Positions 3,096-55,878 are shown, numbered from the stretch's first letter. The stretch: 64,000 bases of DNA from Nitrospirales bacterium (GCA_965223295.1 CBDCWC010000003.1:1760001-1824000); one strand, 5' to 3'. Notes: a model not told the origin generated them from the letters alone. Made by a program: numbers and translations.

Positions 3096-3283
3096 GGGAG
3101 TGTTGAATAGTAAAGATATCAAACGCCATACTTCGCAATGGAGCCCTTGGCGTTCAACAGCGTCGGGTCTGTTCAAAAAAGTCCGTCCAGCAAGGCCACA
3201 GCCATTTTCGCGCGTGGAGCGTACTGGTCCTACGTGAGCACGGAAAAAGGGCGAAAACGCTGGCGGCTTTTTTCAACAGACCC
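3096..3283 (+). mobile_element. MITE-like repeat, copy 1 (subfamily A)
   Basis: Homologous to four other copies; ends GGGAGTGTTGAA...TTCAACAGACCC; flanked by CTTGT/CTTGT. Confidence 0.85.
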
Positions 3284-3284
3284 C

Positions 3285-4532
3285 TTGTCTATTGTTGCCT
3301 ATCTCAGAACGTTGTGGTTTTTTCTGCTTCTCTTGACTTTTTTGGTGTTGACTAGCTGCCACTCGTCACGACCTATGCTGCCGATTAACACTTTGATTCC
3401 CTTGGCTTGGGAAGGCTATCAACAGCGGTTTATTAATGCTGATGGACGAGTGTTCCGGCCGTTCAATCAAGACGATACGGTGTCTGAGGGACAGGCCTAT
3501 GCATTGCTGATGGCGGTGGTGTTGGATGATCGTCAGACGTTCGACCGTGTATTGAATTGGACGACCACACATCTCTCTAGATACCAAAAATTTGGTGATC
3601 ATCTTTTAGCGTGGCATTGGGAAGTGGAGAAGGGTGTGACGGATTGGAACAGCGCATCTGATGCGGAAGTGGATTTGGCGTTGGCGCTGCTCTTAGCATG
3701 TGCACGCTGGGAGGATGAAACGTATCGTACGCAGGCTTTCCTTCTTCTCCAAGATATTCTGGACCTAGAGACCGAAGTTATTATTGGCGATGAACGGTAT
3801 CTCATGCCGGGTAATTGGCGTTTGGGTCACAAGATTCATCTACTGAATCCATCGTATTTTTCTCCTGCGCACTTTCGGTTGTTTTATCAGGTCACTGGTG
3901 ATGAACGGTGGAACGAGCTTCTTCGGAGTACCTATGCCTTTTTGCATCGATTACCGCTTCAGGAGATTGTCCCGGTTCGGGCTGGGTTAGTTCCAGATTG
4001 GATCGGTATTGATCCCCAAGGTAACCTAAAAATTACTGAAGGATTTTCTCAACATGTCACTTGGGATGCAGTGCGAATGCCATGGCGGGTTTCCCTTGAT
4101 GTGTTATGGGGGCAAGGACCGTGTGGCCATGATACGGTCTCAGGTTTGGAGCATATACGGAGCATCACGGACTTTTTGGCTCAAGAATGGGATGAACGGG
4201 AAGGTCAATTTTTTCTGGAATACGGTCTCGATGGGAACCCCATCAAATTTGAAGAACAGGTAGGTGCGTATGCGATGGCTTTGCCAGCGTTACAGAGCTT
4301 GCAGTCGAGTCTTACTACAGGAGTCATGAACAAGATACAAGCATTGTTTTATGAGGAGGGGCAATATTTTCAGAATGCCCAGGATTACTATCAAAATAGT
4401 TTAAGTCTCTTAGGCCTTTTGTCCCTTCAATCAGCCAGTACTCAGGGCTTGCCCTCTTTAGTTCATGAACTCCAGAACTATACTCAGAATGACATCACAC
4501 TCTGTGCCAGCCGGACGAACTCTTTACGGTAG
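3285..4532 (+). CDS. bcsZ: Glycoside hydrolase family 8 endoglucanase (BcsZ-like), probable lipoprotein; start uncertain (TTG 3285, or ATG 3138 inside the repeat)
   Basis: GH8 motifs TVSEGQAY, NSASDAE, LNPSY, WDAVR; lipobox-like LVLTSC. Confidence 0.85.
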   Translation: MSIVAYLRTLWFFLLLLTFLVLTSCHSSRPMLPINTLIPLAWEGYQQRFINADGRVFRPFNQDDTVSEGQAYALLMAVVLDDRQTFDRVLNWTTTHLSRYQKFGDHLLAWHWEVEKGVTDWNSASDAEVDLALALLLACARWEDETYRTQAFLLLQDILDLETEVIIGDERYLMPGNWRLGHKIHLLNPSYFSPAHFRLFYQVTGDERWNELLRSTYAFLHRLPLQEIVPVRAGLVPDWIGIDPQGNLKITEGFSQHVTWDAVRMPWRVSLDVLWGQGPCGHDTVSGLEHIRSITDFLAQEWDEREGQFFLEYGLDGNPIKFEEQVGAYAMALPALQSLQSSLTTGVMNKIQALFYEEGQYFQNAQDYYQNSLSLLGLLSLQSASTQGLPSLVHELQNYTQNDITLCASRTNSLR

Positions 4533-4580
4533 GCCAAAACCTTTCCTGCGTCCTACAGGTTCTCTCACAATCCTAAGAGG

Positions 4581-5564
4581 TCATGGTTTTCGAGCGAGCG
4601 CCAGGCTGATGAGTTGGTCGGGGTCGGTATACCATTTGACCAATTCAAATCCTGCGGTGTTGAGGAGATTCTCAGTCAAGGGGCGATCATACTTAGTGCT
4701 AAGTTCGGTACGAATTTCTTCGTCTTTTTTGAGCAGCACAAAGAGGTCAAGTTCTGGGATATCAAGGGTCTGTTCCTGGGTTGATCGTAACCACATTTCA
4801 ATCCGATGTGCATCTGAGTTGTAGCGCGCAACATGCTCGAAATTGTCTGGGTTGCATTGGGCGCCCAGTTGGGTCTGTAGGACTCGAAGAATATTTTTAT
4901 TGAATCTTGCCGTAATACCCTTTTGATCATTATAGGCGGCTTCTAATCGGGCAGAGTCGGTGATGAGTTGTACTCCTAATAGGAAATAATCCCCTGAGGC
5001 CATTTCGGTGTTCACCGCCGTAAGAAAATCTTCAGCAGCGAGAGTTGGGAGATTGCCGATGGTCCCTCCCAAAATTACGACTAGCCGTTTACCGCCTTCA
5101 GGAATATGTTCAAGGTGAACTAAAAAGTCTCCCGCGACACCATGGACCTGAAGCCCAGGATATTCCTTCACAAGTTCTTCGGAGACGCGGCGCACAATGG
5201 TTTCATCCACATCAAATGGAATGAAATGCCGGAGTTGGCCCACCTCGGTCATCGCGTCTAGCAAGACGCGGGTTTTGGTTGCGGCCCCTGATCCCAATTC
5301 AACAAGTTCCTCGGCTCCACTCAGGGCAACGATTTCATCAGCCCACCTGACTAGCAATTGGTGCTCAGTCCGTGTTTGATAATATTCCGGCAATTCGCAA
5401 ATTTGTTCGAAGAGCGTCGAACCCCGTTCATCGTAGAAAAGTTTTGATGGCAAGGTTCTTGGATTGGCAAGGAGGCCTGTTTTGACGAGATCCCCCAATG
5501 TCTCGGGTTTTTCTCTCGTGATGGGTACGTCGATCGTAATTGATGCCTCGGTTTTTGAATCCAT
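4581..5564 (-). CDS. egtD: L-histidine N-alpha-trimethyltransferase (hercynine synthase)
   Basis: PSKLFYDERGS..LPEYYQTRTE, LVELGSG, GGTIGN, AAYND..GITARFN, IRTELSTKY. Confidence 0.92.
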   Translation of the reverse strand: MDSKTEASITIDVPITREKPETLGDLVKTGLLANPRTLPSKLFYDERGSTLFEQICELPEYYQTRTEHQLLVRWADEIVALSGAEELVELGSGAATKTRVLLDAMTEVGQLRHFIPFDVDETIVRRVSEELVKEYPGLQVHGVAGDFLVHLEHIPEGGKRLVVILGGTIGNLPTLAAEDFLTAVNTEMASGDYFLLGVQLITDSARLEAAYNDQKGITARFNKNILRVLQTQLGAQCNPDNFEHVARYNSDAHRIEMWLRSTQEQTLDIPELDLFVLLKKDEEIRTELSTKYDRPLTENLLNTAGFELVKWYTDPDQLISLALARKP

Positions 5565-5836
5565 ACATTCCTCCCTGGTTCGAGAACAACCGAATCTAGT
5601 GAGATAAATATTTCTGTTAACGGCTTGTGATGAACGTGTTATGTACGTTCAGATGTTGATAAGCAGATTCCTTCTTAATACAAAGGAAAAGCGAATGAGA
5701 TTGGAATAGGGAAGAATGAAATAGGAAATGATGGGAACACTATACTGGGCATGATCCATGGATGCAACCGACAATCATGATATGACCACTCAAATAATAA
5801 GACAGATGAATCGTAAAAACGTGAATGGTTGCTGGG

Positions 5837-7441
5837 TTATCGTGTCGATTCCAAACCTCTGGGTCTGACCCATCGTTCGATCCAACCGAGGAGGCTATCA
5901 ACAAGTAATGCCAGGATTGTGGCTGGCAAGGCTCCAGACAGAATCACATGGACATTGGCTAGTTGGAGGCCTGAAACAATGGGGACTCCTAATCCTCCAG
6001 CTCCAATGAATGCGGCGAGGGTGGCCGTTCCGACGGTCCATATGGCGGCAGTTCGAATGCCAGCCATGATGGTGGGGGCCGCCAGTGGCAGGCGCACTGA
6101 TCGTAAAATTTGCCATTCTGTCATGCCAAGGGCCCGACCGGTCTCGACGACCGATGGGGCCGCATCGCGCAGACCTGAAAAGGTATTGCGCACGATGGGG
6201 TAGAGAGAATAGATCCACAGGGCCATGATGGCGGGGAGGGTTCCGACGCCAAACAGTGGAATCATAAAGGCTAACAAGGCTATGGAGGGAATGGTTTGTG
6301 ACATGCCGATGAGACGGATCATCGTTTCTGCGCCTGTTCGCCACCGCTCCAGTAGAAACGCAAGGGGGATGGCGAGCAGAATGCCAAGCAATAGTCCCAA
6401 GCCAGCCAATCCCATATGTTCTCCTGTGCGAACCAGCAATGTTGTTCGTTGTTCCCATAGATAAGTCAAGAATGATGAGGAGCTCTTTGTCGTTGACGTT
6501 GTTGGCCGCTGTGTTTCTTTGACGAGGTGGAGAGTTTGCAAGGCGTCAGAGGCCACGTGGGGTATGGGTTCACCCTGTTCTTGGATTCGGAGATTCAATT
6601 CACGCATCCGTGCTGGGTTGAGGGCATGAGTCAGTTCGCTCAGCACTAGGGCTAATTCAGGATGTTCGGTTAATGTTTCGCCCCGCACGAGTGCGGTGGC
6701 CTCATAGGGCGGAAAAAATCGGAGATCGTCTTCTAAGACAATAAAATCATATGCGGCCAAACGACCGTCGGTTGTGTAGACATCCAGCACATCAATGTCT
6801 CCATTCTTTGTGGCTTGGTATTTCAGGGATTGTTGCATTCCTACGACTTCATGAAACTTCAGTCCATATCGTTGTCGCAGTCCTGGCAAGCCGTCAGCCC
6901 GTTGGATAAATTCGTAGCCAAACCCGGCTTTCAATGTTGGAGAAACCTTCACTAAATCCGTAATCGTGCGGATACCCAAGGCTTGTGCGTGATCTCGTCT
7001 GAGAGCCAGTGCATAGGAATTCTCAAATCCCAATGGTGCCAGCCATCTTATATCCCACCGTGCCCGAAATTCACTTCGTACTCGGTTCAAGACAGCCGCT
7101 GGATCGTGCATAGCTTCTTCCCCAAGAATGGTGACGAGACCTGTGCCGGTGTATTCTGGGTACAGATCAATGCCGCCGGTGGTTAGTGCTTCAAAGCATA
7201 TTTGTGTGCCGGCCATTCCAAATCGTCGTTCTACCGTTAAGGTCGTTTGGGTTTCGATCAATTGTGCGAACATTTCTGCGAGAAGTCGATTTTCTAGAAA
7301 ATTTTTTGAACCCACAATGATGGTCGTTTGAACTCCAGACCAGGAAGCTGTGTGATACATCAAGAGCAGTGAGAGAGCGAAAATGCCTCCCGCGATCCAT
7401 TTTACAAACGACGAGTTTGGAGAACAAGAAACATTCAGCAT
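5837..7441 (-). CDS. Betaine-family (OpuBC/EgtU-like) ABC transporter, substrate-binding domain fused N-terminally to a permease
   Basis: SBP motifs GSKNFLE, YPEYTGT, EFIQRADG, YTTDG, FFPPY; permease motifs QTIPSIALL, FIGAGGLG; start placed at the ATG just after the ATPase stop. Confidence 0.88.
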   Translation of the reverse strand: MLNVSCSPNSSFVKWIAGGIFALSLLLMYHTASWSGVQTTIIVGSKNFLENRLLAEMFAQLIETQTTLTVERRFGMAGTQICFEALTTGGIDLYPEYTGTGLVTILGEEAMHDPAAVLNRVRSEFRARWDIRWLAPLGFENSYALALRRDHAQALGIRTITDLVKVSPTLKAGFGYEFIQRADGLPGLRQRYGLKFHEVVGMQQSLKYQATKNGDIDVLDVYTTDGRLAAYDFIVLEDDLRFFPPYEATALVRGETLTEHPELALVLSELTHALNPARMRELNLRIQEQGEPIPHVASDALQTLHLVKETQRPTTSTTKSSSSFLTYLWEQRTTLLVRTGEHMGLAGLGLLLGILLAIPLAFLLERWRTGAETMIRLIGMSQTIPSIALLAFMIPLFGVGTLPAIMALWIYSLYPIVRNTFSGLRDAAPSVVETGRALGMTEWQILRSVRLPLAAPTIMAGIRTAAIWTVGTATLAAFIGAGGLGVPIVSGLQLANVHVILSGALPATILALLVDSLLGWIERWVRPRGLESTR

Positions 7442-7451
7442 GGCAGTCTGG

Positions 7452-8195
7452 TCATTGAGATTGGTGTTGAAGCAGCGTTGCCACATACGGGGTGGCTGGA
7501 GAAGCCATGAGTTCTTGTGCCGTGCCAATCTGATGAATGTACCCATCTTTCAGCACCGTAATACGATCACCGAGGCGAAAAGCTTCGGACATATCATGAG
7601 TAATCAAAGCCATGGTTTTGTGAAGGCGAGTTTTGAGAGCCAGAAACTGTTCGTGTAATTCCCGGCGTGTGATGGGGTCTAAGGCACTGAAGGGTTCGTC
7701 TAAAAGGACGATGGGCGGGTCTGCTGCTAGGGCTCTGGCGACGGCGACCCGTTGGCGTTGTCCGCCGGATAGTTCAATAGGATAGCGGTCAGCTATGTGT
7801 GCCGGATCCAGGTTGACCAATGGGAGCAAGGTATTCAGGCGTTGTTCTTGTTGCTCAACGGGCCATTCTAATAGTTGCGGAACTAAACAAACATTGTGCC
7901 TGATGGTCCAATGAGGCAACAGACCACCGTCTTGAGGTATGTATCCCAGTCGGCGTCGCAGGGTGATTGGGTTGTGATCGGTTGCAGGTTGCCCCTGAAT
8001 ATAGACTTCGCCGGACGTTGGATCTACGAGACGGTTGAGTAAACGCAGCATGGTCGTTTTTCCTGACCCACTTTCTCCAATAAGTGCCATCGTTTCACCT
8101 TGTTTCACCTCCCAGTCGATATCGTGGAGTGCATAGGTGCCGTCGGGAAATCGTTTGCTCACGCGTTGGAGTATGAGGTCACAGCTTTGTGTCAT
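7452..8195 (-). CDS. ABC transporter ATP-binding subunit (OpuBA/OsmV-like)
   Basis: Walker A GESGSGKT, signature LSGGQ, Walker B LLDEPFSALD. Confidence 0.9.
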   Translation of the reverse strand: MTQSCDLILQRVSKRFPDGTYALHDIDWEVKQGETMALIGESGSGKTTMLRLLNRLVDPTSGEVYIQGQPATDHNPITLRRRLGYIPQDGGLLPHWTIRHNVCLVPQLLEWPVEQQEQRLNTLLPLVNLDPAHIADRYPIELSGGQRQRVAVARALAADPPIVLLDEPFSALDPITRRELHEQFLALKTRLHKTMALITHDMSEAFRLGDRITVLKDGYIHQIGTAQELMASPATPYVATLLQHQSQ

Positions 8196-8495
8196 AGAAA
8201 GTTCAGACGTGAGTGCAAGGAGAAGTTTCTCAGGCAACTACCGTCTTCAAGCACCGATTGAGAGTTCTACGGTCATAGATGGATTGTTGCCAGGATAGCA
8301 GGGAACGCGAATGGTGGCTAGCAAAAGAAGAGAGGCCAAGGTCCTGAATGATGTGAGGCGCAGAGGACTGAATTTTCTTGAACTCACGGGAAAAACTTTT
8401 GGATCGGCAGTGTTTTCGCTATACTATGGACAGCTCCATGCGGAGCTTTTTTTATTGGCGCCAACGATGAGTCTTTTTTCGTTCCGTTTTTATGA

Positions 8496-9725
8496 ATGAG
8501 GTCAAGCATGCTGACACAATGTTCCAGTCTTCAACAGGAATTAGAACAAGCCCGTAGCCTGACAGACCGACTTTTTGCCATGGTGAGTCCAAGGGCAGTA
8601 TATGCCCGTCCGATTCCTGAACGCCATCGATTGATATTTTACCTAGGTCATCTCGAAGCCTTTGATTGGAATCAATTGTGTCGCTGGACATTGGGTAAGC
8701 CGTCTTTTCATTCTTCATTTGACCAACTATTTGAAGCGGGTATTGATCCAGCAGTGGGTACTGCATCCACCGATATGCCTTCTGATTGGCCAACAGTTAA
8801 GGAAGTGCAAGGGTATAATTTTCGAGTCCGACAAGAAGTGGATCGGGTTTTAGAGCAGGTGTCTGATGAGATGATTCATGTGATTATTGAACATCGTCTC
8901 ATGCATGTTGAAACAACGGCTTACTTGTTGCAACACCTAGATTTTACTGAGAAACAAGACCCATTCTCATCACGGCTATCTTACGACGACCATCTTCCTA
9001 CAGAAGAGATGGTGAAGATTCCGGAAGGATGTGCTCGTTTAGGTCGTTGTAAGGAGGAGGGGTTTGGTTGGGATAATGAATTTAATAACCATGAAGTGTT
9101 TGTTCCAGAGTTTGCGATTAGCCGATATAAAATTACCAACGCCCAATACCAGGCATTTGTAAAAGCGGGTGGGGAGCCGCCTGCCCTCTGGAAGCGTCAA
9201 GGCCAAAATTGGTTTTTAAGGACAATGTTTTGTGATGTTCCTTTGCCTCTTTCTTGGCCGGTCTATGTGACTCGGCAACAGGCTCAGGCTTATGCCACAT
9301 GGAAGGGATGGTCTCTCCCAACCGAAGCGCAATTTCATCGTGCAGCTTATGGAACTCCTGTCGGAATTGAGCAAGAATTTCCCTGGGGTGATTGGGCAGT
9401 TCGCCGGGACTATGGCAATTTCGATTGTCATGCTTGGGATCCCGTCCCGGTCACGGAACACCCACAAGGAGCCAGCGCGTTTGGCGTTGCACAAATGGTT
9501 GGAAATGGTTGGGAATGGACATCGACGTTGTTCCGCCCATTTGAAGGGTTCAACCCTCTCCCGACCTATCCTGGATATTCTGCACGGTTTTTTGACCAGG
9601 ACCATTATGTGGTGAAAGGTGGTGGGCCTCAAACCGCCAGAACATTATTGCGGCGCTCGTTTCGAAATTGGTTCCGTCAGGATTATCCCTATGCCCACAC
9701 TGGGTTTCGTTGTGTGAAAAATTAG
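8496..9725 (+). CDS. egtB: Non-heme iron sulfoxide synthase, EgtB/Egt1/OvoA family (DinB_2 plus FGE-sulfatase domains)
   Basis: IFYLGH, HRLMHVE iron-binding motif, FGWDNE, LPTEAQF, GNGWEWT, RRSFRNWF; divergent from egtD. Confidence 0.8.
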   Translation: MRSSMLTQCSSLQQELEQARSLTDRLFAMVSPRAVYARPIPERHRLIFYLGHLEAFDWNQLCRWTLGKPSFHSSFDQLFEAGIDPAVGTASTDMPSDWPTVKEVQGYNFRVRQEVDRVLEQVSDEMIHVIIEHRLMHVETTAYLLQHLDFTEKQDPFSSRLSYDDHLPTEEMVKIPEGCARLGRCKEEGFGWDNEFNNHEVFVPEFAISRYKITNAQYQAFVKAGGEPPALWKRQGQNWFLRTMFCDVPLPLSWPVYVTRQQAQAYATWKGWSLPTEAQFHRAAYGTPVGIEQEFPWGDWAVRRDYGNFDCHAWDPVPVTEHPQGASAFGVAQMVGNGWEWTSTLFRPFEGFNPLPTYPGYSARFFDQDHYVVKGGGPQTARTLLRRSFRNWFRQDYPYAHTGFRCVKN

Positions 9726-19876: not shown

Positions 19877-19931
19877 GGTCATAAGTATAAAGAAGCACTC
19901 CTGAAAAAAGTCGTCCCTGTTTACTCTATAT

Positions 19932-20124
19932 AGGCGTGTTGAATAATTGAATATCTCAAAGATCATATTTCGCCAGGAAGCCCTTGGCAATCAACAGCGT
20001 CGGGTCTGTTCAAAAAAGGTTCGTCCAGCAAGGCCACAGCCATTTTTGCGCGCGGAGCGTACTGGTCCTACGTGAGCACGGAAAAATGGCGAGAACGCCG
20101 CTGGCGGCTTTTTTCAACAGACCC
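19932..20124 (+). mobile_element. MITE-like repeat, copy 2 (subfamily A)
   Basis: Homologous to copy 1; flanked by TATAT/TATAT. Confidence 0.85.
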
Positions 20125-20171
20125 TATATTCACTCCAATGCCTTATGAACCAGAAATAATCGAGAATCAAT

Positions 20172-23261: not shown

Positions 23262-23423
23262 CGTTCTCGCCATTTTCCCGTGCTCACGTAAGACCAGTAC
23301 GCTCCGCGCGCAAACATGGCGGTGGCCTTGCTGGAGGGCTTTTTTGACCATTCCCGTCGCATCGCAGTCTCCACTGCACTGAAAGCGTTTTCGTAACTTG
23401 CAATTGAACTATTCAACAGTCTC
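23262..23423 (-). mobile_element. MITE-like repeat, copy 3 (subfamily B, right end truncated)
   Basis: Closely matches copy 5; lacks the terminal ~30 bp. Confidence 0.8.
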
Positions 23424-24841: not shown

Positions 24842-25016
24842 TATCCACTCCTTTTTCTTCTATGGCAGCGGCATGTTTTCTTTGGCTGGCTGGAAGGCAC
24901 TAACCACATTTTCTCTCATTTGCCGGTTCATGGCCGATGGTTATAGCATATTGAGAGTAGAGAGGTAATGAAGAAAGCTGCTCTCAGAAGTGCATGCTGT
25001 TTTTAGTTTATGAGTA

Positions 25017-25241
25017 GGGCGTGTTGAATAATGAAGATATCAAGGGCCATATTTCGCCCGTAAGCGGTTCGCTATCAGTAGCATCGGGGCTGTTCAAAAA
25101 TGTCCGCTCGCCTGCGCGAAGCCGCTTCGGCGAAGCCAGGTCCAGCAAGGCCGCAGCTATTTTTGCGCGCGGAACGTACTGGCACTACGTGAGCACGGAA
25201 AAATGGTGAGAACGCCGCTGGCGGCTTTTTTCAACAGACCC
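25017..25241 (+). mobile_element. MITE-like repeat, copy 4 (subfamily A) with a 34-bp nested insert
   Basis: Homologous to copies 1 and 2; flanks GAGTA/AAGTA; extra sequence at 25107-25140. Confidence 0.85.
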
Positions 25242-25361
25242 AAGTAAGATCGTTTAAAGCTCTCTCGCCATTTCAGGGCTTGGCCTCGAAGAGAGGACGA
25301 GGGTTTGGGTGATGGAAGCTCACCAAAATATTCAAGCACTGTAGACTTGGAGCGAGTGCCG

Positions 25362-32907: not shown

Positions 32908-32910
32908 GTC

Positions 32911-34419: not shown

Positions 34420-34448
34420 CCTTCAGGATAATCCAGGCCATATGACTC

Positions 34449-35861: not shown

Positions 35862-35990
35862 GAATTGGTGTGGGTACAATGATCGCATCATACAAGAAAG
35901 CTCGAAGTCATACGTTTAAGAACGGATCGAGTAAGCAGAGGTAACATAGCCTTGCCATTTTCATATCATGTAACCGAAGAGGTTTGTTGA

Positions 35991-37067: not shown

Positions 37068-37080
37068 ATGTAGGGGCTGA

Positions 37081-39678: not shown

Positions 39679-39691
39679 CTAGGGGATCGGC

Positions 39692-40771: not shown

Positions 40772-41083
40772 GCAGAAATTTTCGTATTAAGTTGCTGGAA
40801 AGATTTTCAACGATACAGAAAAAATCATGGGTTCAATGATCATCTTTAATGAGAGGGATGTGTGCAGGGAATAAAAAAGGCGGATGTCAAGAGGTGAACC
40901 AGACAGTGGCCATGCCCCCGCTTGCTGACCATGAATGTGCTTGTATCCCTATTTTGGTATCGAACACCTATCAAGGGAACCAAGAGGCCATGACAAGAAT
41001 CGAGTCTGTTTCTGTTTCAAAAATGAAGCCTATCTTGATGACGTTGAAAAATTTTTCCCGTTCCTCTGGGAGTCAAGGGAGCT

Positions 41084-42460
41084 ATGTTCCGAAAAATTCA
41101 GCACATTCATTTAGTGGGAATTGGTGGGAGTGGCATGAGCGGCATTGCGGAGGTCCTCCTTACCTTAGGCTATAAGGTGACGGGTTCCGATACCGGATAT
41201 TCCGACAGCATTCGCCGGTTAGAAGAAATGGGTGGAATCGTGTCAATCGGACATGATGAATCACATATTGAAGGCGCCCAGGTCGTAGTCATGTCATCAG
41301 CTATTGCTTCGTCAAACCCCGAAATTCGTGCGGCACGAGCTAAAGTGATTCCAGTCATCCCTCGCGCTGAAATGTTGGCCGAATTGATGCGACTGAAATT
41401 CGGGATTGCGATAGCGGGCGCACATGGAAAAACCACAACAACGTCTATGGTGGCGTCGATTCTGGCCCAGGCTGGCTTGGACCCGACGTTTGTGGTGGGT
41501 GGGAAAGTCAATGCCATGGGGACTCATGCCCGGTTAGGTCGAAGTGACCTTCTGATTGCGGAAGCCGATGAGAGCGATGGATCGTTCTTGCGTTTGTCTC
41601 CTTCCGTCGTGGTGGTCACCAACATGGATCGAGAGCATCTGGAACATTATGGAAGCATGGATCGATTGCAGGAAGCGTTTTTAGAATTTATCAACAAGAT
41701 TCCATTCTACGGTGCGGCGATTCTGTGTGCCGATGATCCGTGGATTCGTGGGCTGTTGCCTGGGATCGTCAAACGCTATCAGACTTTTGGCATGAATGAT
41801 TTTTCGGGTGTGCTGACCCCGGATTTATGCGCAACGGATATTGAATCAAGGGCTCTGGGTGTAGAATTTCGTGCCCATTATCGCGGGCAGAAAATCGGAC
41901 CATTTCGCATTCGTATTCCTGGTGTTCACAATGTCTCGAATGCGCTAGCAGCTATTGGTGTGGCTTTGGAATTAGATGTGCCTGTGGATTTGATTCGATC
42001 AGGCTTGGCGGCGTTTTCCGGAGTGGAGCGGCGATTTCAAATTCGAGGAGAAAAAAATGGCATTTTAGTTGTCGATGACTACGGTCATCACCCCACGGAA
42101 GTTCGTGCGACGTTAGCAGCCGCACGGGCTACCTGGTCTCGACGCATTGTTGTGATCTTTCAGCCTCATCGATATTCCAGAACGCGAGACCTTGCTAATG
42201 ATTTTGCCAAAGCCTTTGAACAAGCAGACGTGGTGTACATCTTGGATATTTATGCCGCAGGGGAGGAACCCATTCCTGGGGTCAGCGGTCAGACACTTGT
42301 CGAAAAAATCAGTGAGTCTGGTCATGCCGCCGTGTATTGGGTCAATAGCGATCCTGGGATTGTGAACCGGCTACGAGATGATCTGCAGGAGGGAGATGTC
42401 TTGTTGACGTTAGGTGCAGGAGATGTGTGGAAGATTGGGCAGGAATTCTTAACGACGTGA
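41084..42460 (+). CDS. murC: UDP-MurNAc:L-Ala ligase
   Basis: GIGGSGMSG, HGKTTT, EADESD, DDYGHHPTE. Confidence 0.97.
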   Translation: MFRKIQHIHLVGIGGSGMSGIAEVLLTLGYKVTGSDTGYSDSIRRLEEMGGIVSIGHDESHIEGAQVVVMSSAIASSNPEIRAARAKVIPVIPRAEMLAELMRLKFGIAIAGAHGKTTTTSMVASILAQAGLDPTFVVGGKVNAMGTHARLGRSDLLIAEADESDGSFLRLSPSVVVVTNMDREHLEHYGSMDRLQEAFLEFINKIPFYGAAILCADDPWIRGLLPGIVKRYQTFGMNDFSGVLTPDLCATDIESRALGVEFRAHYRGQKIGPFRIRIPGVHNVSNALAAIGVALELDVPVDLIRSGLAAFSGVERRFQIRGEKNGILVVDDYGHHPTEVRATLAAARATWSRRIVVIFQPHRYSRTRDLANDFAKAFEQADVVYILDIYAAGEEPIPGVSGQTLVEKISESGHAAVYWVNSDPGIVNRLRDDLQEGDVLLTLGAGDVWKIGQEFLTT

Positions 42461-42602
42461 GAGGCGAGAAGTCAATGAAGTGAAAAGCAAGAAGGGAGCA
42501 GCAAGGATACCTGTTCCTCGTGTTTTTTCTCTCCTGACTTTTTTCTTCTCAGGTTGCACTTGGACAAGAGAGTTTGGTGAATGAAATTAGATCAAGACGG
42601 TC

Positions 42603-43526
42603 ATGAAGCAATCGTCACGAAACAAATCATTCATGCCTGTGCTTCGTCGAACTCTATCCCATATCAAAGGAGAAATTTTCTGGCACGAACCTTTGGCCTC
42701 ACATACATCTCTCCAAGTCGGGGGACCAGCTGATGCATTGGTGTTTCCCGTCGATGTGGAGGATGTGATCCGTCTGGTACGAGAGGCGCGAGTGAATCAT
42801 GTTCCTTTGATGGTCTTGGGTGGAACAAACGTGGTGATTCGAGATAAAGGCATTCGAGGCATTGTGATGCAGTTAAAGCATTTACATCAGATACACGAAA
42901 ATCCGAAGCATGTGGTCTATGCACAAGCTGGTGTGAGGTTGCCGCGATTAATGCAATTTGCTTTGGGTCGGAAACTTTCAGGAATGGAATGGGCAGCAGG
43001 AATTCCGGGAACGGTGGGTGGGGGCGTCGTGATGAATGCTGGAACCCATTTAGGTGAGATGCAGGATGTGTTGCAGGCCGTGGATTTTGTCACAATGTAT
43101 GGCAAACGGAAACGGATAGAGGGTTCAGCCTTATTATTTGAATATCGGAAGACAGTCCTTCCAAAAGGTTTTGTGGTTGGCGCGTGGATGCAACTCAGAT
43201 CGGCAGCCAAAGAAACGATTCAGGCTGCCACGAAACAGTACTTGCAGTATCGAAAGTCGACCCAACCACTCACGCTGCCCAATGCTGGTTCGGTGTTTCA
43301 AAATCCTGACGGAGATTCGGCTGGCCGCTTAATCGAAGCGGCAGGGTTGAAAGGGTTACGAATCGGGGATGCTGAAGTTTCGACAAAGCATGCCAATTTT
43401 ATCGTGAACAAGGGAACGGCAACGGCCGAGCAGGTCCTTCAGTTAGTCAGAAAGGTTCGTGAACAGGTTGCGAGAAAATTTGGTATTCGTTTGAAGTTGG
43501 AATGGAAAGTGGTTGGGGAGCGCTGA
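42603..43526 (+). CDS. murB: UDP-N-acetylenolpyruvoylglucosamine reductase
   Basis: GIPGTVGG..MNAG, AGSVFQNP, HANF. Confidence 0.95.
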   Translation: MKQSSRNKSFMPVLRRTLSHIKGEIFWHEPLASHTSLQVGGPADALVFPVDVEDVIRLVREARVNHVPLMVLGGTNVVIRDKGIRGIVMQLKHLHQIHENPKHVVYAQAGVRLPRLMQFALGRKLSGMEWAAGIPGTVGGGVVMNAGTHLGEMQDVLQAVDFVTMYGKRKRIEGSALLFEYRKTVLPKGFVVGAWMQLRSAAKETIQAATKQYLQYRKSTQPLTLPNAGSVFQNPDGDSAGRLIEAAGLKGLRIGDAEVSTKHANFIVNKGTATAEQVLQLVRKVREQVARKFGIRLKLEWKVVGER

Positions 43527-43604
43527 GCGATGACAGAGTGAGAAGTATGAGAAAAGACAACCACACAAACTTGAAGTCACATTAGAGGATATAAGTAGGA
43601 AGCT

Positions 43605-44567
43605 ATGAGCAGGAGGTCTTTACGTGTCGGTGTTCTCATGGGGGGGACTTCAGCAGAGCGCGAAATTTCTTTAAAGACCGGCCGATCTGTTTGTCAATCC
43701 TTACGCCGCCGCCGGTATACCGTGGTGCCTATTGATGCCGGTGCGACGTTGCCGCAGCAACTCCGCGCCAAGAGGGTTTCAGTCGCGTTTATCGCGCTTC
43801 ATGGATTAGGTGGAGAAGATGGCACGGTTCAGGGCCTCTTGGAAATTATGAATATTCCCTACACTGGATCGGGTGTGAGTGCGAGTGCTGTTTGTATGGA
43901 TAAAGGGTTGACCCGTGTGCTGCTTCAGGCTGCGGGTGTACCTGTCCCTGCTGGGAAAATCGTACATCGTACATCACCGCCCGCTGCTTCGCCACGTGGT
44001 ATTGGCTGGCCTCTTGTCGTTAAGCCTTGTATGGAAGGGTCCAGTCTTGGGGTGTCGATTGTGAAAAGTTCCGCAGGGTGGAAGAACGCCTTACGGAAGG
44101 CGTTTCGACATGGAGAACAAGCGGTGGTCGAAAAATATATTCCAGGTCGTGAGGTGGCCATTGGGATCCTGGATCACCGGACATTACCGGCTGTTGAAGT
44201 TATTGCACCAGGCGGGTTTTACAATTTTAGGGCGAAGTATGGAAAAGCCGGCACCCAATATCTTTGTCCTGCTTCCCTCACACCTCGTTTACAGCGGTTA
44301 TTGAATGCACAGAGTCTCCAAGCATATCAGGCTTTGGGATGTTGTGGCGCCGCCCGTGTTGATTTTCGGATTCATCCCAATGGACGTCCCTATGTTCTGG
44401 AGCTGAACACCATTCCTGGAATGACAGAGCGAAGTTTACTGCCGATGGCTGCAGCTCAAGAGGGCATGACTTACGATGACTTGGTAGAAGCCATGTTGCA
44501 AGAAGCCCTACAAAAGCGAAGAAGACCTTCTGAAAACGTCAAGACCCTGAAAAGGAAAACGGCATAA
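43605..44567 (+). CDS. ddl: D-alanine-D-alanine ligase
   Basis: GGTSAEREIS, LHG..GEDG, GSSLG, ELNTIPG. Confidence 0.95.
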   Translation: MSRRSLRVGVLMGGTSAEREISLKTGRSVCQSLRRRRYTVVPIDAGATLPQQLRAKRVSVAFIALHGLGGEDGTVQGLLEIMNIPYTGSGVSASAVCMDKGLTRVLLQAAGVPVPAGKIVHRTSPPAASPRGIGWPLVVKPCMEGSSLGVSIVKSSAGWKNALRKAFRHGEQAVVEKYIPGREVAIGILDHRTLPAVEVIAPGGFYNFRAKYGKAGTQYLCPASLTPRLQRLLNAQSLQAYQALGCCGAARVDFRIHPNGRPYVLELNTIPGMTERSLLPMAAAQEGMTYDDLVEAMLQEALQKRRRPSENVKTLKRKTA

Positions 44568-45388
44568 TGGGTGTTCGAGAAATCGCTTCTTCAAAATCGC
44601 CCCGTAAAAATCGATCACTCAAGCGGGGAGATGTTGTTGGAAGAAAAGAAACAGCGCGCGCCAAATCGCCTGCTCGACGGGTCGTCATAGGCAGTCTCCT
44701 GGCCTGTCTTTTGGTCGTGCTCATGGTTGGTGGGCGAGTGGCGATACAGTCGATCAATGAATGGACCAAGATTCAACAAACCACAATTTTAGGCATGGAT
44801 CATCTTTCGCGAGAGGAGATTTCCACTGAATTGAACTTGGCTCCCGATTCAAGTTTGTGGTCCATCGATACTGATCATCTCAGAGAACAGTTGGAGGTTC
44901 ATCCTTGGATTCGTTCTGTGAGGTTTGAGCGTGTTTTCCCCAACACTCTGGTTGTTCAAATTGAAGAACGGGAACCTGTGGCTGTGTTGAAATCATCAAA
45001 ACAAGAACATCTACTGGATGTAGATGGCTATTTGTTGCCTGGGGAGACAGCGAAGGTTCACAGGGGTTTGCCAGTTCTTGAGGGACTCACATTGAAATAT
45101 TTTGCCGAGCATGAAGACGAAAGCCATCAACGTGCAAAAGAAGGCATTCATTTGGCGGCCCTGTTGTCAGAGCGTTTTTCGGGCCGGCCGCGAGTGAATG
45201 TGGCCCATGATCATACAACAGTAGTGGATCTTCCGCGTCTTCGAGTTCAATTTGGATCAGACGCTGAACAACAGTGGGGGAGGTTCTTGGTTCTCTATCC
45301 CAGTATCAAAAGCACGATCGGGCGGTATAGGCAAGAAGTGGATTTGAGATTTTCTCAAAAGGTCATTCTTCGCAAGAGGACATTGTAA
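44567..45388 (+). CDS. ftsQ: Cell division protein FtsQ/DivIB
   Basis: TM helix plus POTRA (PWIRSV..RVFPNTL..EREP); position in cluster. Confidence 0.85.
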   Translation: MGVREIASSKSPRKNRSLKRGDVVGRKETARAKSPARRVVIGSLLACLLVVLMVGGRVAIQSINEWTKIQQTTILGMDHLSREEISTELNLAPDSSLWSIDTDHLREQLEVHPWIRSVRFERVFPNTLVVQIEEREPVAVLKSSKQEHLLDVDGYLLPGETAKVHRGLPVLEGLTLKYFAEHEDESHQRAKEGIHLAALLSERFSGRPRVNVAHDHTTVVDLPRLRVQFGSDAEQQWGRFLVLYPSIKSTIGRYRQEVDLRFSQKVILRKRTL

Positions 45389-45391
45389 GCT

Positions 45392-46645
45392 ATGACAAAA
45401 AAAGAACACATTGTAGTGGGTTTAGACATTGGAACGACCAAAATTTGCGCAGTCGTTGGCGAAATTTTATCTGATCGGTCGGTGAACGTGATTGGCATCG
45501 GTTCGCATCGTTCGACTGGCTTACGCAAGGGCATGGTCGTCAACATGGATAACACGGTGGAATCCATTAAACGGGCCGTGGAAGAAGCCGAACTCATGGC
45601 GGCGGTACAAATCAATTCTGTGTATACCGGCATTGCCGGAGGCCACATTGGGAGTGAGAGCGCACAAGGAGTGGTAGCGTTAAAAAAACGGGAAGTCACA
45701 AAGAATGATATCCGGCGTGCTGTGGATACCGCTCGTGGGTGCGCGGTACCGCCTCCTGATCGGCAAATTTTGCATGTGCTGCCCCGAGAATTCATTGTCG
45801 ACGACCAAGAAGGCATTCGAGATCCCTTAGGCATTGCCGGATCGCGCCTTGAGGTCGATGTTCATATCGTGACGGGAGCGGTTACATCTGCCCAGAATCT
45901 TGCGCGGTGTGTCAGCCGCGCGGGACTAGATGTCGTCGATATTGTCTTACAGCCCCTGGCTTCTAGTGCGGCGGTGTTGTCGTCAGAGGAGAGAGAGTTA
46001 GGGGTGGTGATGGTTGATATTGGTGGAGGCACGACGGACGTCGCGATTTGGGTAGAAGGGTGCATTCGGCATTCGGCCGTCATTCCTATGGGCGGACATC
46101 ATTTAACGTCAGATTTAGCCATTGGGTTACGAACGGCGCCGGAAGATGCTGAAAAAATAAAACTGCAATATGGCGTGGCTAGCAGCCAGTTACTAAATGA
46201 GGAAGAAAATATTGAAGTCCCGAGTGTCGGGGGACGTCCATCCCGAGTCATGCCGCGAGATGTGGTGGCGCAAATACTCTCGCCGCGTGTGGAAGAAATG
46301 TTTGACATGGTGCGTCGGGAAATTCGGAGAGCGGGCTATGACGGAATGTTGGTCGCGGGCGGGGTGTTAACGGGAGGGACTTCGTTGCTTCCGGGGATGT
46401 CTGAAGTTGCCGAGCAGGTTCTGAATCTCTCGGTTCGGTTAGGGCGTCCTTTAGGTGTTGGGGGCCTGCGGGATATCGTGCAAAACCCTATGTATTCTAC
46501 GGCTGTTGGTTTGATCGTGCATTCCGTGAGTGAAGAAAACGAATTCGAAGTGGTCGGGGCCGGAGGTGGAAAGTCTACCAAATCCTCACGATGGATGGGG
46601 GGAATGGTCTTCAAGATGAAGAGCTGGGTCATGAACTTTTTTTAA
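45392..46645 (+). CDS. ftsA: Cell division protein FtsA
   Basis: GLDIGTTK, DIGGGTTD, LTGG. Confidence 0.96.
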   Translation: MTKKEHIVVGLDIGTTKICAVVGEILSDRSVNVIGIGSHRSTGLRKGMVVNMDNTVESIKRAVEEAELMAAVQINSVYTGIAGGHIGSESAQGVVALKKREVTKNDIRRAVDTARGCAVPPPDRQILHVLPREFIVDDQEGIRDPLGIAGSRLEVDVHIVTGAVTSAQNLARCVSRAGLDVVDIVLQPLASSAAVLSSEERELGVVMVDIGGGTTDVAIWVEGCIRHSAVIPMGGHHLTSDLAIGLRTAPEDAEKIKLQYGVASSQLLNEEENIEVPSVGGRPSRVMPRDVVAQILSPRVEEMFDMVRREIRRAGYDGMLVAGGVLTGGTSLLPGMSEVAEQVLNLSVRLGRPLGVGGLRDIVQNPMYSTAVGLIVHSVSEENEFEVVGAGGGKSTKSSRWMGGMVFKMKSWVMNFF

Positions 46646-46757
46646 TCCATGGAAGGAAAGGAGCACTCGACATCCATGTCCTCGTTCGCCACAACATTGC
46701 AACAACAATTTCATGTAACCACAATCTGCCGCAGTGATGGCAGAAAGGAGGCGTCCA

Positions 46758-47972
46758 ATGTTTTCAATGTCTGATGAAGAACAATCGGCGATCAACATTA
46801 AGGTTGTCGGAGTCGGCGGTGCAGGCTGCAATGCCGTGAATACCATGATTGAATCGGGTCTGAGCCGCGTAGAGTTTGTGGTGGCCAATACGGATTTGCA
46901 GGCGCTTGGACGTTCAATGGCTTCCTATAAGATTCAATTGGGTCCTGAGCGTGCGCGTGGTCTGGGAGCTGGCGCTCGGCCGGAAGTTGGAAAGGAGTCG
47001 GCTATCGAAAGCGAAACGCAAATTCGAGATGCGCTAGAAGGCTCGGACATGGTGTTTGTCACAGCGGGGATGGGCGGTGGAACTGGAACCGGTGGCGCCC
47101 CAGTGGCCGCAAAAATTGCTCGGGAACTGGGTATTCTTACGGTCGGTGTGGTGACTAAGCCTTTTCAATATGAAGGAAATCGTCGCACCAGTTTTGCAGA
47201 AGAAGGTATTCGCGAATTGAAAAAACATGTGGATTCTCTTCTGATCATCCCTAATCAAAAGTTACTCGGGTTGGTGGATAAAAACACGCCACTCCTTGAA
47301 GCCTTTAAGATTGCGGATGATGTCTTGCGACAGGCGATTCAAGGTATTTCCGATGTGATTACCACTCCAGGTTTAGTGAATGTGGATTTTGCGGATGTTC
47401 GAACGGTGATGGGGTATTCTGGTCGTGCCGTCATGGGGATGGGAACTGGCCGAGGTCCGACCAGGGCCGAAGAGGCTGCCCAATTGGCCATTGCCAGTCC
47501 ATTATTGGAAGACGGCAGTGTGGAAGGAGCTCGTGGCTTGTTACTGAACATTACCGGCGGCCCCAGCATGACATTGCATGAAGTCAATGAGGCCTCCAAT
47601 ATTGCGCGTGAGGCCGCCGACCCACAGGCGAATATTATTGTGGGCCAAGTCATTAATCCTGACATGGGTGAAGAATTGACCGTGACGGTGATTGCGACCG
47701 GATTCGAGCAGGGAGAGTCAGTTTTACGGTTCCCGGGCACTCATCAATCAACCCTTGTAGTGGAACCTCTGAAAACGCCGTCTCTGGTATCGGTCGGGGT
47801 CGAGAATGAGGCCGACAATGGCATAGATGATATGGATCGGCCCACATACTTGCGCCGACAGGCTGCGGTACGAAAGACCGGAGAAAATGGCAACGGCAAC
47901 GGTAATGGGAGTTTGCTGGTGGACGATGATTGGGATGTGCCAACGTTTCTCAGAAAAAAACCGGAAAACTAA
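46758..47972 (+). CDS. ftsZ: Cell division protein FtsZ
   Basis: [16 protein letters not shown]-terminal [18 protein letters not shown] before ATG 46758. Confidence 0.98.
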
Positions 47973-50418: not shown

Positions 50419-50442
50419 TGGTTCCTTTTCTCCCATGATTCA

Positions 50443-52360: not shown

Positions 52361-52396
52361 AATCGATTATGGCTAGACTTCTTGCCGCAAATTAAT

Positions 52397-52471: not shown

Positions 52472-52632
52472 ATTTTTTCTGGAAAGGGGCGTGGAGTGAC
52501 CGGAACGACTTGCCCACTATAACGGTCCTGCTGAGGGGGATGCTTTTTCAAAGAAAAAGGCTTGGGGCTTTGGCAAAGACCGAGCTTTTGGAGGGTGTCC
52601 CTATAAGGCAGTTTTTGATTTGAGTGAGAATT

Positions 52633-53290: not shown

Positions 53291-53887
53291 ATGAACGGTG
53301 AGTCATCCGTTGCCGACATTCCAATCAATCTTCCCAATAGTCTTACGGTTCTTCGAATTCTCCTCGTCCCTGTGTTTGTTGGGCTATTGCTCTACGAACA
53401 TTATGATATCGCACTCATCACGCTGCTGATTGCGGCCTTGACCGATATGTTGGACGGGATGATTGCCCGTATTACCGACCAACAGACTCGCTTGGGTGAA
53501 TATTTGGATCCTCTTGCCGATAAACTTTTGTTGATGTCGGCCATCATCACACTTTCGGTACTACATTTCATCCCACTCTGGGCTGTCATTGTGGTCGTGA
53601 GCCGCGATGCCATTTTGTTGACCGGCACACTCGTGGCCAATTTGTCTGAAACGGATATCAATATCGCCCCTACGGTGTTAGGTAAAGGAACGACTTTTGC
53701 TCAAATTTGTTATGTCATTTCGATCATGTTGTATGCCACCGGGCGGATACCGGACTTTCTTGCTCAGCCTTTCTTAGTTGTGATGGTGGTGCTAACCGTG
53801 GGCTCTGGGGTCCATTATCTATTCCGCGGTATTCAACACATCAATGGGTCAAATACGGGGGTCGACTCAGAAGGGGGAACCCCATGA
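53291..53887 (+). CDS. pgsA: CDP-alcohol phosphatidyltransferase (PgsA-like)
   Basis: NLPNSLT..R, TDMLDGMIAR..G.YLDPLADK. Confidence 0.85.
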   Translation: MNGESSVADIPINLPNSLTVLRILLVPVFVGLLLYEHYDIALITLLIAALTDMLDGMIARITDQQTRLGEYLDPLADKLLLMSAIITLSVLHFIPLWAVIVVVSRDAILLTGTLVANLSETDINIAPTVLGKGTTFAQICYVISIMLYATGRIPDFLAQPFLVVMVVLTVGSGVHYLFRGIQHINGSNTGVDSEGGTP

Positions 53888-55683
53888 GTCGAGAGCGTGT
53901 TGGCCATCAGCTCGTGGATGCCAAGGTTATTTCATCATCAGATTTAGCCAAGGCCCTTGAGGTTCAACAGAGTGAAGGCGGTCGACTTGGTAGCATTCTG
54001 GTTCGGATGGAGGTGTTGTCTGAAGCCACATTGCTGGAATTCCTAAGCCAGCAGTATGGAGTCTCTACGATAGATCTTTCCACATGTACGATAAATGAAA
54101 GCCTGTTGGCGCTTCTTCCTCTTTCGATCATTCAGCAACATTTAGTGGTGCCGGTCCAGCAAACTGTGTCTCGTTTAACCTTGGCCATGGTTGACCCTAC
54201 GAATGTTTCCTTATTAGACGAGCTTCGTTTTAGAACAAGCCTTCATATTGTTCCGATGGTGGCCACTGAATCGGATGTACGTGCAGCCATTAGCCGGATG
54301 TATGGCCAATCTCAAAATGGAGGTTCACGAATGTCCAGTCCTTCCCTCGGATTGGAGAGAGTCGATCAGCAGACGAATGTCACGAACGTCCTGGCTCCAT
54401 CGTCTTCATCGTCGTTCGACAGAGGTGCCGCCTATTCTTCGGGTGGAGAATCTCGGCTCGACTCCAGGAGTAAACTTCGCATAGCCATTGAGGGTGATCC
54501 TTCGGCTGTTGACGTAGTGAATGCCCTGGTCCAGGAAGCTTTAGCCATGGAAGCGAGTGATATTCATATTGAACCGTTGGAAAATATTATCCGGATTCGG
54601 TTCAGATTAGATGGCGTTTTGCGGCCCATCCATAATTTACCGAAAGTCTTACATCAATCCTTGCTAGCTCGGCTCAAAATTCTTTCGGACCTAGATATAG
54701 CTGAACGGCGGCTCCCTCAGGATGGGCGGATGAATATTGAGGGATTTCCTCAGGTGGATATTCGAGTGGCGATCTTGCCGTGTTTATTTGGAGAAAAGGC
54801 AGTCTTGCGGCTCTTGAATCAATCGGGATTGGCTCTTCATCTCACAAATCTTGGATTAGATCAACCTGATTTAGATCGGGTGACCACAGCTCTAGAAAAG
54901 CCGTACGGCATGATTTTGGTCACTGGCCCAACGGGCAGCGGAAAAACCACCACGCTGTATAGCGCGTTACAATATTTGAATACGCCATCGATGAATATTG
55001 TGACGGTAGAAGATCCCGTGGAGTTTCAAATTCAGGGGATCAATCAACTGCAGATTCATGAAGAGATTGGTTTGAACTTTTCAATGGGGCTGCGTTCCTT
55101 CTTGCGGCAGGATCCTGATGTGATGATGGTGGGAGAAATTCGCGACCGCGAAACAGCTCAAATTGCTATTCAAGCTTCACTGACTGGACATCGAGTGTTA
55201 TCCACGCTCCATACCATGAATGGCCCTGGAGCTATCACGCGTCTTATCGATATGGGAATTGAACCATTTCTCGTGTCCTCAGCCATCTCATTGATTATTG
55301 GCCAACGGCTTGTGCGGAAAATATGTCAGCATTGCGTAGAACGTGAGGCGGTCTCTCCGGTTCATTTACGGGATTTGGGTTTTGAAGAGCATGTGCTTGA
55401 TACGGTCGAGCCCAGAAAAGGACATGGCTGTGATCACTGCCATGGCACAGGGTATAAAGGACGGATGGCCTTATTTGAAACATTGCCTATCCTTGAACGG
55501 TTACATGCCACCATTTTGTCTCGCGCCTCGACTCATGAACTGATCGACTGTGCAAAGCAGGATGGATTTCGGACCCTGCGTCAAGCTGGATTGGCCGCTG
55601 TACAGCGAGGGCAGACAACGGTGAATGAAATTTTGACGGAAACTAGTGACGATGGAGCCTGTACGGCTTTGGCCGGAAAGTAG
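53884..55683 (+). CDS. pilB: Type IV pilus assembly ATPase PilB
   Basis: MshEN-like N-terminus (RLGSILV), ASDIHIE, GPTGSGKTT, LRQDPD, CxxC pairs; start overlaps the pgsA stop. Confidence 0.92.
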   Translation: MSRERVGHQLVDAKVISSSDLAKALEVQQSEGGRLGSILVRMEVLSEATLLEFLSQQYGVSTIDLSTCTINESLLALLPLSIIQQHLVVPVQQTVSRLTLAMVDPTNVSLLDELRFRTSLHIVPMVATESDVRAAISRMYGQSQNGGSRMSSPSLGLERVDQQTNVTNVLAPSSSSSFDRGAAYSSGGESRLDSRSKLRIAIEGDPSAVDVVNALVQEALAMEASDIHIEPLENIIRIRFRLDGVLRPIHNLPKVLHQSLLARLKILSDLDIAERRLPQDGRMNIEGFPQVDIRVAILPCLFGEKAVLRLLNQSGLALHLTNLGLDQPDLDRVTTALEKPYGMILVTGPTGSGKTTTLYSALQYLNTPSMNIVTVEDPVEFQIQGINQLQIHEEIGLNFSMGLRSFLRQDPDVMMVGEIRDRETAQIAIQASLTGHRVLSTLHTMNGPGAITRLIDMGIEPFLVSSAISLIIGQRLVRKICQHCVEREAVSPVHLRDLGFEEHVLDTVEPRKGHGCDHCHGTGYKGRMALFETLPILERLHATILSRASTHELIDCAKQDGFRTLRQAGLAAVQRGQTTVNEILTETSDDGACTALAGK

Positions 55684-55688
55684 GTAAT

Positions 55689-55878
55689 GGAAATGTTGAA
55701 AAAAGCCGCCAGCGGCGTTCTCGCCATTTTTCCGTGCTCACGTACTCCCAGTGCGCTCCGCGCGCAAAAATGGCTGCGGCCTTGCTGGACGGACTTTTTT
55801 GACCATTCCCGTCGAATTGAAGTCACCATTGCTCTGAAAGCCTTTTCGTAACTTGAAATTGAATTATTCAACAGGGCC
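55689..55878 (-). mobile_element. MITE-like repeat, copy 5 (subfamily B)
   Basis: Reverse-oriented full copy; flanks GTAAT/GTAAA. Confidence 0.85.

Follow-up and report, generated by a model that had tools for sequence, protein, structure and literature searches.

The 64,000-nucleotide stretch of Nitrospirales bacterium DNA analysed here (GCA_965223295.1 CBDCWC010000003.1:1760001-1824000; hereafter, the window) holds five copies of a non-coding element of about 190 bp, four of them complete and one without its right end. [quoted passage not shown] The family is well defined and new for Nitrospirales: its members are small and non-coding, carry terminal inverted repeats, are bordered by a duplication of fixed length, and occur in many dispersed copies at unrelated sites. 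An earlier note on this DNA, made from the sequence alone, had described the element as MITE-like, non-coding, and non-autonomous, with inverted ends and duplicated target sites, and this description was supported.

Genome contigs were scanned with a core motif of the element, which gave at least 82 stretches, 80 of them listed as loci (L numbers below). Seventy-seven of these 80 loci come from 11 assemblies named Nitrospirales, Nitrospiraceae or Nitrospirota, and 51 of the 77 lie on one 4.1-Mb contig; the listed loci of other taxa (L022, L055, and L068) are chance matches, with no family match in the profile search. An nhmmer search of the window and the loci yielded 149 matches, 98 of them near full length, and 88 copies remained after identical sequences from overlapping loci had been dropped.

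The five bases immediately outside the GGGAG...ACCC ends agreed between the two flanks in 70, 76, 76, 75, and 77 of the 88 copies, the adjacent positions in only 36–45, and other offsets in 6–39, so the target duplication across the family is 5 bp long. All five bases matched in 54 copies and four of the five in 17, whereas shuffled pairing of left and right flanks would give 0.2 and 2.8, respectively; tabulation of the flanks, which the earlier note had put forward as a check, thus placed the duplications far above chance. The exact 4-bp duplication claimed there had to be corrected: the flank pentamers quoted for the complete window copies were accurate, and the shorter length came from two of these copies with a 4/5 match, which are 5-bp duplications carrying one mismatch. 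The five duplicated positions are 66–76% A+T. C is enriched at both positions flanking them on the left (38 and 35 of 88 copies) and G at both on the right (37 and 36 of 88), which suggests a CC-N5-GG-like target preference; a 9-bp duplication of this form was rejected because its outer positions agree in only 36–45 copies, compared to 70–77 for the inner five.

The element is 181–267 bp long in the 88 copies, typically about 190 bp, and encodes no protein. It begins with GGGAGTGTTGAATAATG and finishes with the inverse of GGGTCTGTTGAAAAAAG. The terminal inverted repeats are 17 bp, the outer ends agreeing at 13/17 positions, and the similarity stops beyond them. The 17-nt right end, CTTTTTTCAACAGACCC, recurs inverted in the middle of the element in every window copy with one to three mismatches (16/17 positions agree between the internal copy and the right end), and also matches the left end, more weakly, with up to three mismatches, which bears out the inverted ends described previously. 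This internal third copy of the terminal repeat divides the element into two hairpin modules, a feature absent from the earlier note. The left module, about 70 bp and bounded by GGGAGTGTTGAA and TCAACAG, is variable; the right module, about 120 bp and bounded by the 16-of-17 inverted repeat, is conserved. At least two types of left module are present in the window (copies 1, 2, and 4 versus copies 3 and 5) and more are found elsewhere; they are old sequence types. Folding of single copies as RNA gave two independent hairpin domains, with z-scores of −4.7 (copy 2), −5.2 (complement of copy 2), and −3.2 (copy 5).

Beside the typical form there are longer classes of about 214, 237, and 262 bp, which owe their length to inserts of about 24 nt. 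They carry one to three such units in the left arm of the right hairpin, each unit containing a CCCGAAGGG-like mini-hairpin (e.g., in L018, L015, L019 4802-5064, L048, and L043), and a separate insert of about 30 nt with a CCCGAAGGG-like motif occupies either arm of the right hairpin in a few copies. Variants with the same ends include a minimal 44-bp form with little beyond the two ends (L035 6073-6116), a 73-bp form consisting of the left module only (L061 7927-7999), and forms with an unrelated T-rich core (L008 1137-1345, L024 8982-9299, and L062 97-335).

The five window copies, at the positions and on the strands given in the earlier note, were recovered in the sequence itself, by a repeat search that linked them as direct or inverted repeats of 69–107 nt with 74–100% identity, and by a profile built from 86 family members. 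The remaining window matches of this profile were three scattered ones with E>2 and three weak opposite-strand self-matches on the same copies, the latter due to the palindromic build of the element. The core motif, with 18 specified bases, matched the window five times against 0.04 expected, and none of 100 shuffles reached five. The copies and their parts are as follows.

3096..3283, + strand: copy 1, complete at 188 bp (E 7e-57 over profile positions 1-191), between a TPR-repeat gene ending at 3009 and a GH8 glycosyl hydrolase gene
3091..3095: left target-site duplication of copy 1, CTTGT (5/5 match with 3284-3288)
3284..3288: right target-site duplication of copy 1, CTTGT
3096..3112, + strand: left terminal inverted repeat of copy 1, 17 nt
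3165..3181, + strand: internal inverted copy of the right terminus in copy 1, start of the right hairpin module (1 mismatch)
3267..3283, + strand: right terminal inverted repeat of copy 1 (0 mismatches to the right-end pattern)
19932..20124, + strand: copy 2, complete, 193 bp (profile match), between a malate/lactate dehydrogenase gene and a NuoF-like gene
19927..19931: left target-site duplication of copy 2, TATAT (5/5)
20125..20129: right target-site duplication of copy 2, TATAT
19932..19948, + strand: left terminal inverted repeat of copy 2
20002..20018, + strand: internal inverted copy of the right terminus in copy 2 (1 mismatch)
20108..20124, + strand: right terminal inverted repeat of copy 2 (0 mismatches)
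23262..23423, − strand: copy 3, truncated, without its last ~27 nt (right terminus), variant-B left module (profile positions 3-164 of 191), between GTP cyclohydrolase I and an open reading frame (ORF) without Pfam match
23407..23423, − strand: left terminal inverted repeat of copy 3
23339..23355, − strand: internal inverted copy of the right terminus in copy 3, diverged (3 mismatches)
25017..25241, + strand: copy 4, complete, 225 bp, with an extra insert of ~34 nt at about 25106-25139, in the divergent intergenic region between an alpha/beta hydrolase (−) and an MgsA/RarA-type ATPase (+)
25012..25016: left target-site duplication of copy 4, GAGTA (4/5 match with 25242-25246)
25242..25246: right target-site duplication of copy 4, AAGTA
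25017..25033, + strand: left terminal inverted repeat of copy 4 (right-end pattern on the opposite strand, 3 mismatches)
25086..25102, + strand: internal inverted copy of the right terminus in copy 4 (2 mismatches)
25225..25241, + strand: right terminal inverted repeat of copy 4 (0 mismatches)
55689..55878, − strand: copy 5, a complete copy of 190 bp with the variant-B left module; its neighbours are two T2SSE-family ATPase genes (PilB-like and PilT-like)
55879..55883: left-side target-site duplication of copy 5, TTTAC on the element strand (4/5 match with 55684-55688)
55684..55688: right-side target-site duplication of copy 5, ATTAC on the element strand
55862..55878, − strand: left terminal inverted repeat of copy 5
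55794..55810, − strand: internal inverted copy of the right terminus in copy 5, diverged (3 mismatches)
55689..55705, − strand: right terminal inverted repeat of copy 5 (2 mismatches)

All five copies are intergenic and lie among ordinary genes, at a density of 0.78 per 10 kb, or about one per 13 kb. As had been noted before, no transposase is encoded in the window: a Pfam scan found none among the 55 ORFs scanned, all of which are ordinary chromosomal genes, including the mraW-to-ftsZ cluster, genes of ergothioneine type, and those for transporters, type IV pilus ATPases, and ribosomal proteins. The peptide shared by several ORFs, which had been explained as a by-product of the repeat, indeed lies inside an open frame over each of the five copies; these frames extend 59–78 codons from stop to stop, except at copy 1, the only copy to contribute to a long ORF (3138-4532, which is the GH8 gene with its N-terminus spuriously extended). 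This ORF begins inside copy 1, and its GH8 Pfam domain starts only at residue 84. Its first ~50 codons, among them those of the shared peptide, probably go untranslated, and the true start is probably downstream of 3283; coding of the peptide was rejected because of the indels and the covariation of the hairpin.

Several further observations concern the window as a whole. GC skew is positive in every 4-kb bin (0.056–0.175) and nearly all genes are on the + strand, so that the window looks like leading-strand DNA with strong strand bias. The complete cell-wall and division cluster at 29877-47972 (MraW, PBP, Mur ligases, MraY, FtsW, MurG, MurB, Ddl, FtsQ, FtsA, and FtsZ) has no copy of the element inside it, although copies average one per 13 kb over the window. 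At 4581-9725, a glycine-betaine-type ABC transporter stands between EgtD-like histidine methyltransferase and EgtB-like (DinB_2 + FGE-sulfatase) genes, possibly forming an ergothioneine and osmolyte locus.

The element family is numerous in marine-type Nitrospirales genomes, in agreement with the large genome-wide family that had been predicted from the five window copies. The 4.1-Mb contig contained 82 distinct sites in the 465.5 kb sampled; the 31 non-seed sites among them correspond to 0.68 per 10 kb and extrapolate to about 280 per 4.12 Mb, a rough figure because the flanks of seeded copies may be enriched. A BLAST search with copy 2 against 72,556 plasmid records returned a 22-nt chance match at most. 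Copies in the window are 90.6–93.6% identical to copies in other genomes, compared to 72–89% among themselves, which means that subfamilies are older than the species or move between them. In the literature on MITEs in Nitrospira/Nitrospirae, with bioRxiv supplements and subscription journals outside the search, no such element was found described; the one paper pairing MITE and Nitrospira terms in its abstract concerns unrelated contigs, and the word stem “nitrospir” occurs 0 times in a 2024 review of prokaryotic MITEs (PMC10969869).

Insertions are almost exclusively intergenic: 83 of the 84 evaluable copies lie outside long ORFs, and the median distance to the nearest gene end is about 40–90 nt on most sides. 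By crude ORF calls, 31 copies in tandem gene contexts are co-oriented with the genes and 15 anti-oriented, while 21 copies are in convergent and 17 in divergent contexts (84/88 evaluable). A candidate empty site was found for the 237-bp copy in L040 (4958-5194), which is flanked by the duplication GGTAA: the orthologous site in L006 carries no element, and L040 from which the element and one GGTAA have been removed aligns with L006 on both sides. The GGTAA duplication includes the stop codon of the upstream gene in L040, and the L006 frame runs a few codons further.

The MITE copies are themselves landing sites for insertion sequence (IS) elements, since such elements were found inside them. 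An 840-bp IS5-family element occurs at L001 4054-4893 and L045 3021-3860, in L001 inside a MITE copy, and a 772-bp element, assigned to the IS1 family by Pfam, occurs at L015 822-1593 and L047 4109-4880, in L047 inside a MITE copy; the duplications at their junctions are of the TAG/CTAG type (~3–4 bp) for the IS5-family element and 8 bp for the IS1-family element. Additionally, a 1329-bp IS256-family element (Transposase_mut, 422 aa) is present in several identical copies in one genome and with 79% identity in another (L035 632-1960; L050 608-1935 and 7717-9045; L067 8936-10021; L072 7871-9197). It adjoins a truncated MITE copy in L050, where two direct copies enclose ~5.8 kb and share a common flank motif, as a composite transposon might.

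Because the copies are flanked by a 5-bp AT-rich direct duplication, insertion would proceed at a 5-bp staggered cut made by a transposase-type enzyme, which would be supplied in trans by an autonomous element recognising the 17-bp ends. Outside the known copies, fuzzy searching gave 6 places for a left end alone, 18 for a right end alone, and 42 for the 12-nt tip, and no partner; these places are mini-variants, ends of IS-broken copies, or chance matches inside genes. The one inverted pair of ends, at L037 3096 and 4672 and thus separated by 1.6 kb, has a TonB-dependent receptor gene between its members and not a transposase. The resident IS elements were likewise rejected as partners: the IS256-family element has different ends, and its copies have no matching flank duplication; the ends of the IS5-family element (DUF4096 + DDE_Tnp_1) are unrelated and its duplication is of another type; and the IS1-family element differs in its ends (11/17 positions agree with the MITE tip, by eye) and in its 8-bp duplication. 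No IS1182-type element was seen in the loci.

The proposal that the ends are of IS5/IS1182 type was not upheld: the resemblance is confined to the first ~12 bases, GGnnnTGTTGAA, tips of this kind being known in the IS5/IS903, IS1, and IS6 families, and a tip that resembles so many IS families assigns the element to none of them. The duplication is 4 bp in the IS5 group and 9 bp in the IS903 group, and to our knowledge a 5-bp duplication is not typical of elements of either group. Derivation of the MITE from IS5/IS1182 found support neither in this length nor in the ends of the only IS5-family element seen (L001 4054-4893), which are unrelated. A Tn3-like enzyme would be a better candidate than one of IS5/IS1182 type in view of the GGG tips and the AT-rich duplication of 5 bp, but the repeats are shorter than those of the Tn3 family.

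Several results weigh against a mobile MITE family with an enzyme in trans. No autonomous partner with the ends of the family was found in the 64-kb window or in 795 kb of related loci, so that the predicted transposase bounded by the same termini was not recovered. Seventeen of the 88 copies have three or fewer matches among the five flank positions. In 8 of the 41 copies whose first four bases are other than GGGA, a duplication of 9–11 nt was found against 0.4 expected from the control, the extra bases replacing the left tip of the element (L081, L066 1391-1627, L024 4826-5065, L006 7284-7474, L075 6987-7178, L050, L057, and L043), and these duplications are not explained by a fixed 5-bp stagger. 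There is no sign of very recent activity: in the best-sampled genome, pairs of copies are 86% identical at the median and 97.9% at most, and 0 of 1485 pairs reach 98%. In the orthologous empty-site comparison proposed in the earlier note, L006 lacks the element, but the L040/L006 site is coarse: the genes are only ~70–78% identical, the target 5-mer differs between the two, and exact excision of the element could also have produced it; in the L050/L074 and reciprocal L006/L040 comparisons, the intergenic DNA is unalignable at this divergence. Finally, the census is a lower bound, and the genome of the window is not among the loci, since the window flanks match none of those listed (megablast and blastn), the element alone being shared.

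Some of the same results would be expected if the repeats were relics of an extinct element, no longer mobile and kept as a fossil family by drift, an explanation that we consider rather unlikely. The absence of near-identical pairs, the missing partner, the 17 decayed duplications, and the IS elements that have inserted into or abut MITE copies (L001, L047, and L050) are in its favour. At the same time, the 54 duplications that are still perfect argue against it, and no site is common to two species where this could be evaluated, which implies that the insertions post-date the divergence of genomes whose intergenic DNA can already no longer be aligned; moreover, the partner was looked for in only about 0.8 Mb of 11 genomes. 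A different kind of mover would be involved if the element were a palindromic repeat of the REP/REPIN type, spread by RAYT (Y1 HUH) on single-stranded hairpins and not by a DDE enzyme. The long-hairpin doublet architecture, the hundreds of intergenic copies, and the persistence across related species are reminiscent of such repeats, but we know of no REP/REPIN or IS200/IS605-type element that makes direct target duplications, while a variable 5-bp direct duplication flanks 71/88 copies here, and the orientation of copies relative to GC skew (51 versus 32) reveals no strong strand specificity. This origin is therefore highly improbable, and a MITE family moved in trans by a transposase-type enzyme is preferred.

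The question of whether the right module does something at the RNA level overlaps with the MITE interpretation and does not exclude it. Elements transcribed with their neighbours would fold into long RNA hairpins, and the hairpin followed by a T6 run, which is offered in each orientation, could affect termination or mRNA stability. In an alignment of 86 of the 88 copies (L047, IS-broken, and L014:4877-5078, a weak opposite-strand match, were left out), 94–98% of the cells of the right-module hairpin are paired. Two-sided changes occur at 26 right-module pairs versus 18.3 in shuffles (0/500 reach 26), and the covariation score is 0.123, compared to 0.091 in shuffled and 0.036–0.047 with slid partners; the structure was obtained by folding the consensus and is favoured by it, and inherited changes enter these figures repeatedly. 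Compensatory changes keep the long hairpin; for example, one pair is C:G in 48 copies and A:U in 26. From the gapped alignment, RNAalifold retrieved a consensus with no more than part of the hairpin. Covariation, an excess of G:U over A:C among variant cells on the element strand (102 versus 25), and the mild co-orientation with neighbouring genes in tandem contexts are no more than suggestive of an RNA-level role, which might plausibly be in termination or mRNA stability.

A stronger form of this idea is that the right module is primarily a functional structured RNA (a portable terminator, an insulator, an mRNA-stability hairpin, or a small regulatory RNA) kept by selection, with mobility secondary. 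In the same copies, the right module is 92–96% identical to the consensus while the interior of the left module is 76–78%, a contrast also present in copies not picked by the search motif, and between species, copies reach 94.8% identity against 70–79% for the genes beside them. However, the divergence of the right module (6–11%) is nearly independent of that of the left module (2–63%), and in the closest pairs it is not below it; module shuffling thus accounts for the uneven conservation without selection, and the case for selection drawn from that unevenness was downgraded after this pairwise test. The G:U excess shrinks to 23 versus 17 when counted by pair position. Within the region covered, a simple terminator scan flagged only weak 5–6-bp stems, at two of its three copies, and the count of 9 for the whole region is not above shuffles (7.1), and Rfam gave 0 matches at the gathering score for the whole window and 0 at E up to 10 for copy 2. 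The family can dispense with the core, as variants with other cores have the same ends. A right module that is primarily a functional RNA is, on balance, unlikely. We would be equally reserved about the combined view that it is an RNA hairpin riding on a transposon and acting on transcripts as a two-way terminator or stability element, preserved almost unaltered across at least 11 Nitrospirales species. If that view were true, nitrite-oxidising bacteria would possess a mobile genome-wide layer of post-transcriptional control in which variation would be unconstrained in the left module and the inserts, and the mover would be a kind of transposase so far unconnected with MITEs, one that uses a 5-bp stagger and 17-bp ends.

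Nitrospirales are poorly studied nitrifiers known mostly from metagenomes, and they now gain a documented high-copy mobile repeat, usable as a marker when strains are typed or assemblies checked. For annotation, the element matters as a source of false ORFs and N-terminal extensions, such as that of ORF 3138-4532. With approximately one copy per 13–15 kb, many intergenic regions are affected in the genomes that bear the family, and the element is a candidate regulator of neighbouring genes. None of the families considered matches the combination of a 5-bp AT-rich duplication with ends as short as 17 bp and copies in the hundreds, and the partner enzyme would place this one in the classification of mobile elements.

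Among the known systems compared, the TIMEs of Pseudomonas plasmids and chromosomes are described in PMC4133298 as 262-bp, usually single-copy elements that share 38-bp repeats with Tn3-family transposons and generate a 5-bp (rarely 6-bp) AT-rich duplication. The Nitrospirales element resembles them in its 5-bp AT-rich duplications, its size of a few hundred base pairs, the lack of a transposase, the predicted RNA hairpins, and the varied cores. Unlike TIMEs, it has 17-bp repeats and hundreds of chromosomal copies, and no Tn3-family transposase was identified among the locus ORFs scanned, which were those next to candidate ends and in repeated elements; the similarity of the ends, which stops at 17 bp, falls short of the 38–40-bp terminal repeats expected of this group.

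The BOX/SPRITE elements of Streptococcus pneumoniae are likewise modular, with a variable number of internal units, carry terminator-like hairpins, cluster, and insert into one another; there is no sequence relation, and the Nitrospirales element differs in its clear terminal inverted repeats, its 5-bp duplication, and its modules, which are two hairpins plus inserts of ~24 nt. There is also a general likeness to other prokaryotic MITEs, such as Correia/NEMIS of Neisseria, ERIC, and RUP, which, according to PMC10969869, where BOX and SPRITE are mentioned too, are also small, non-coding, and intergenic, are present in tens to hundreds of copies, and have terminal inverted repeats, a target duplication, and a predicted stable hairpin if transcribed. 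What sets the Nitrospirales element apart from Correia/NEMIS, ERIC, and RUP is its 5-bp AT-rich duplication, the internal third copy of its terminal repeat, and its construction from two hairpin modules.

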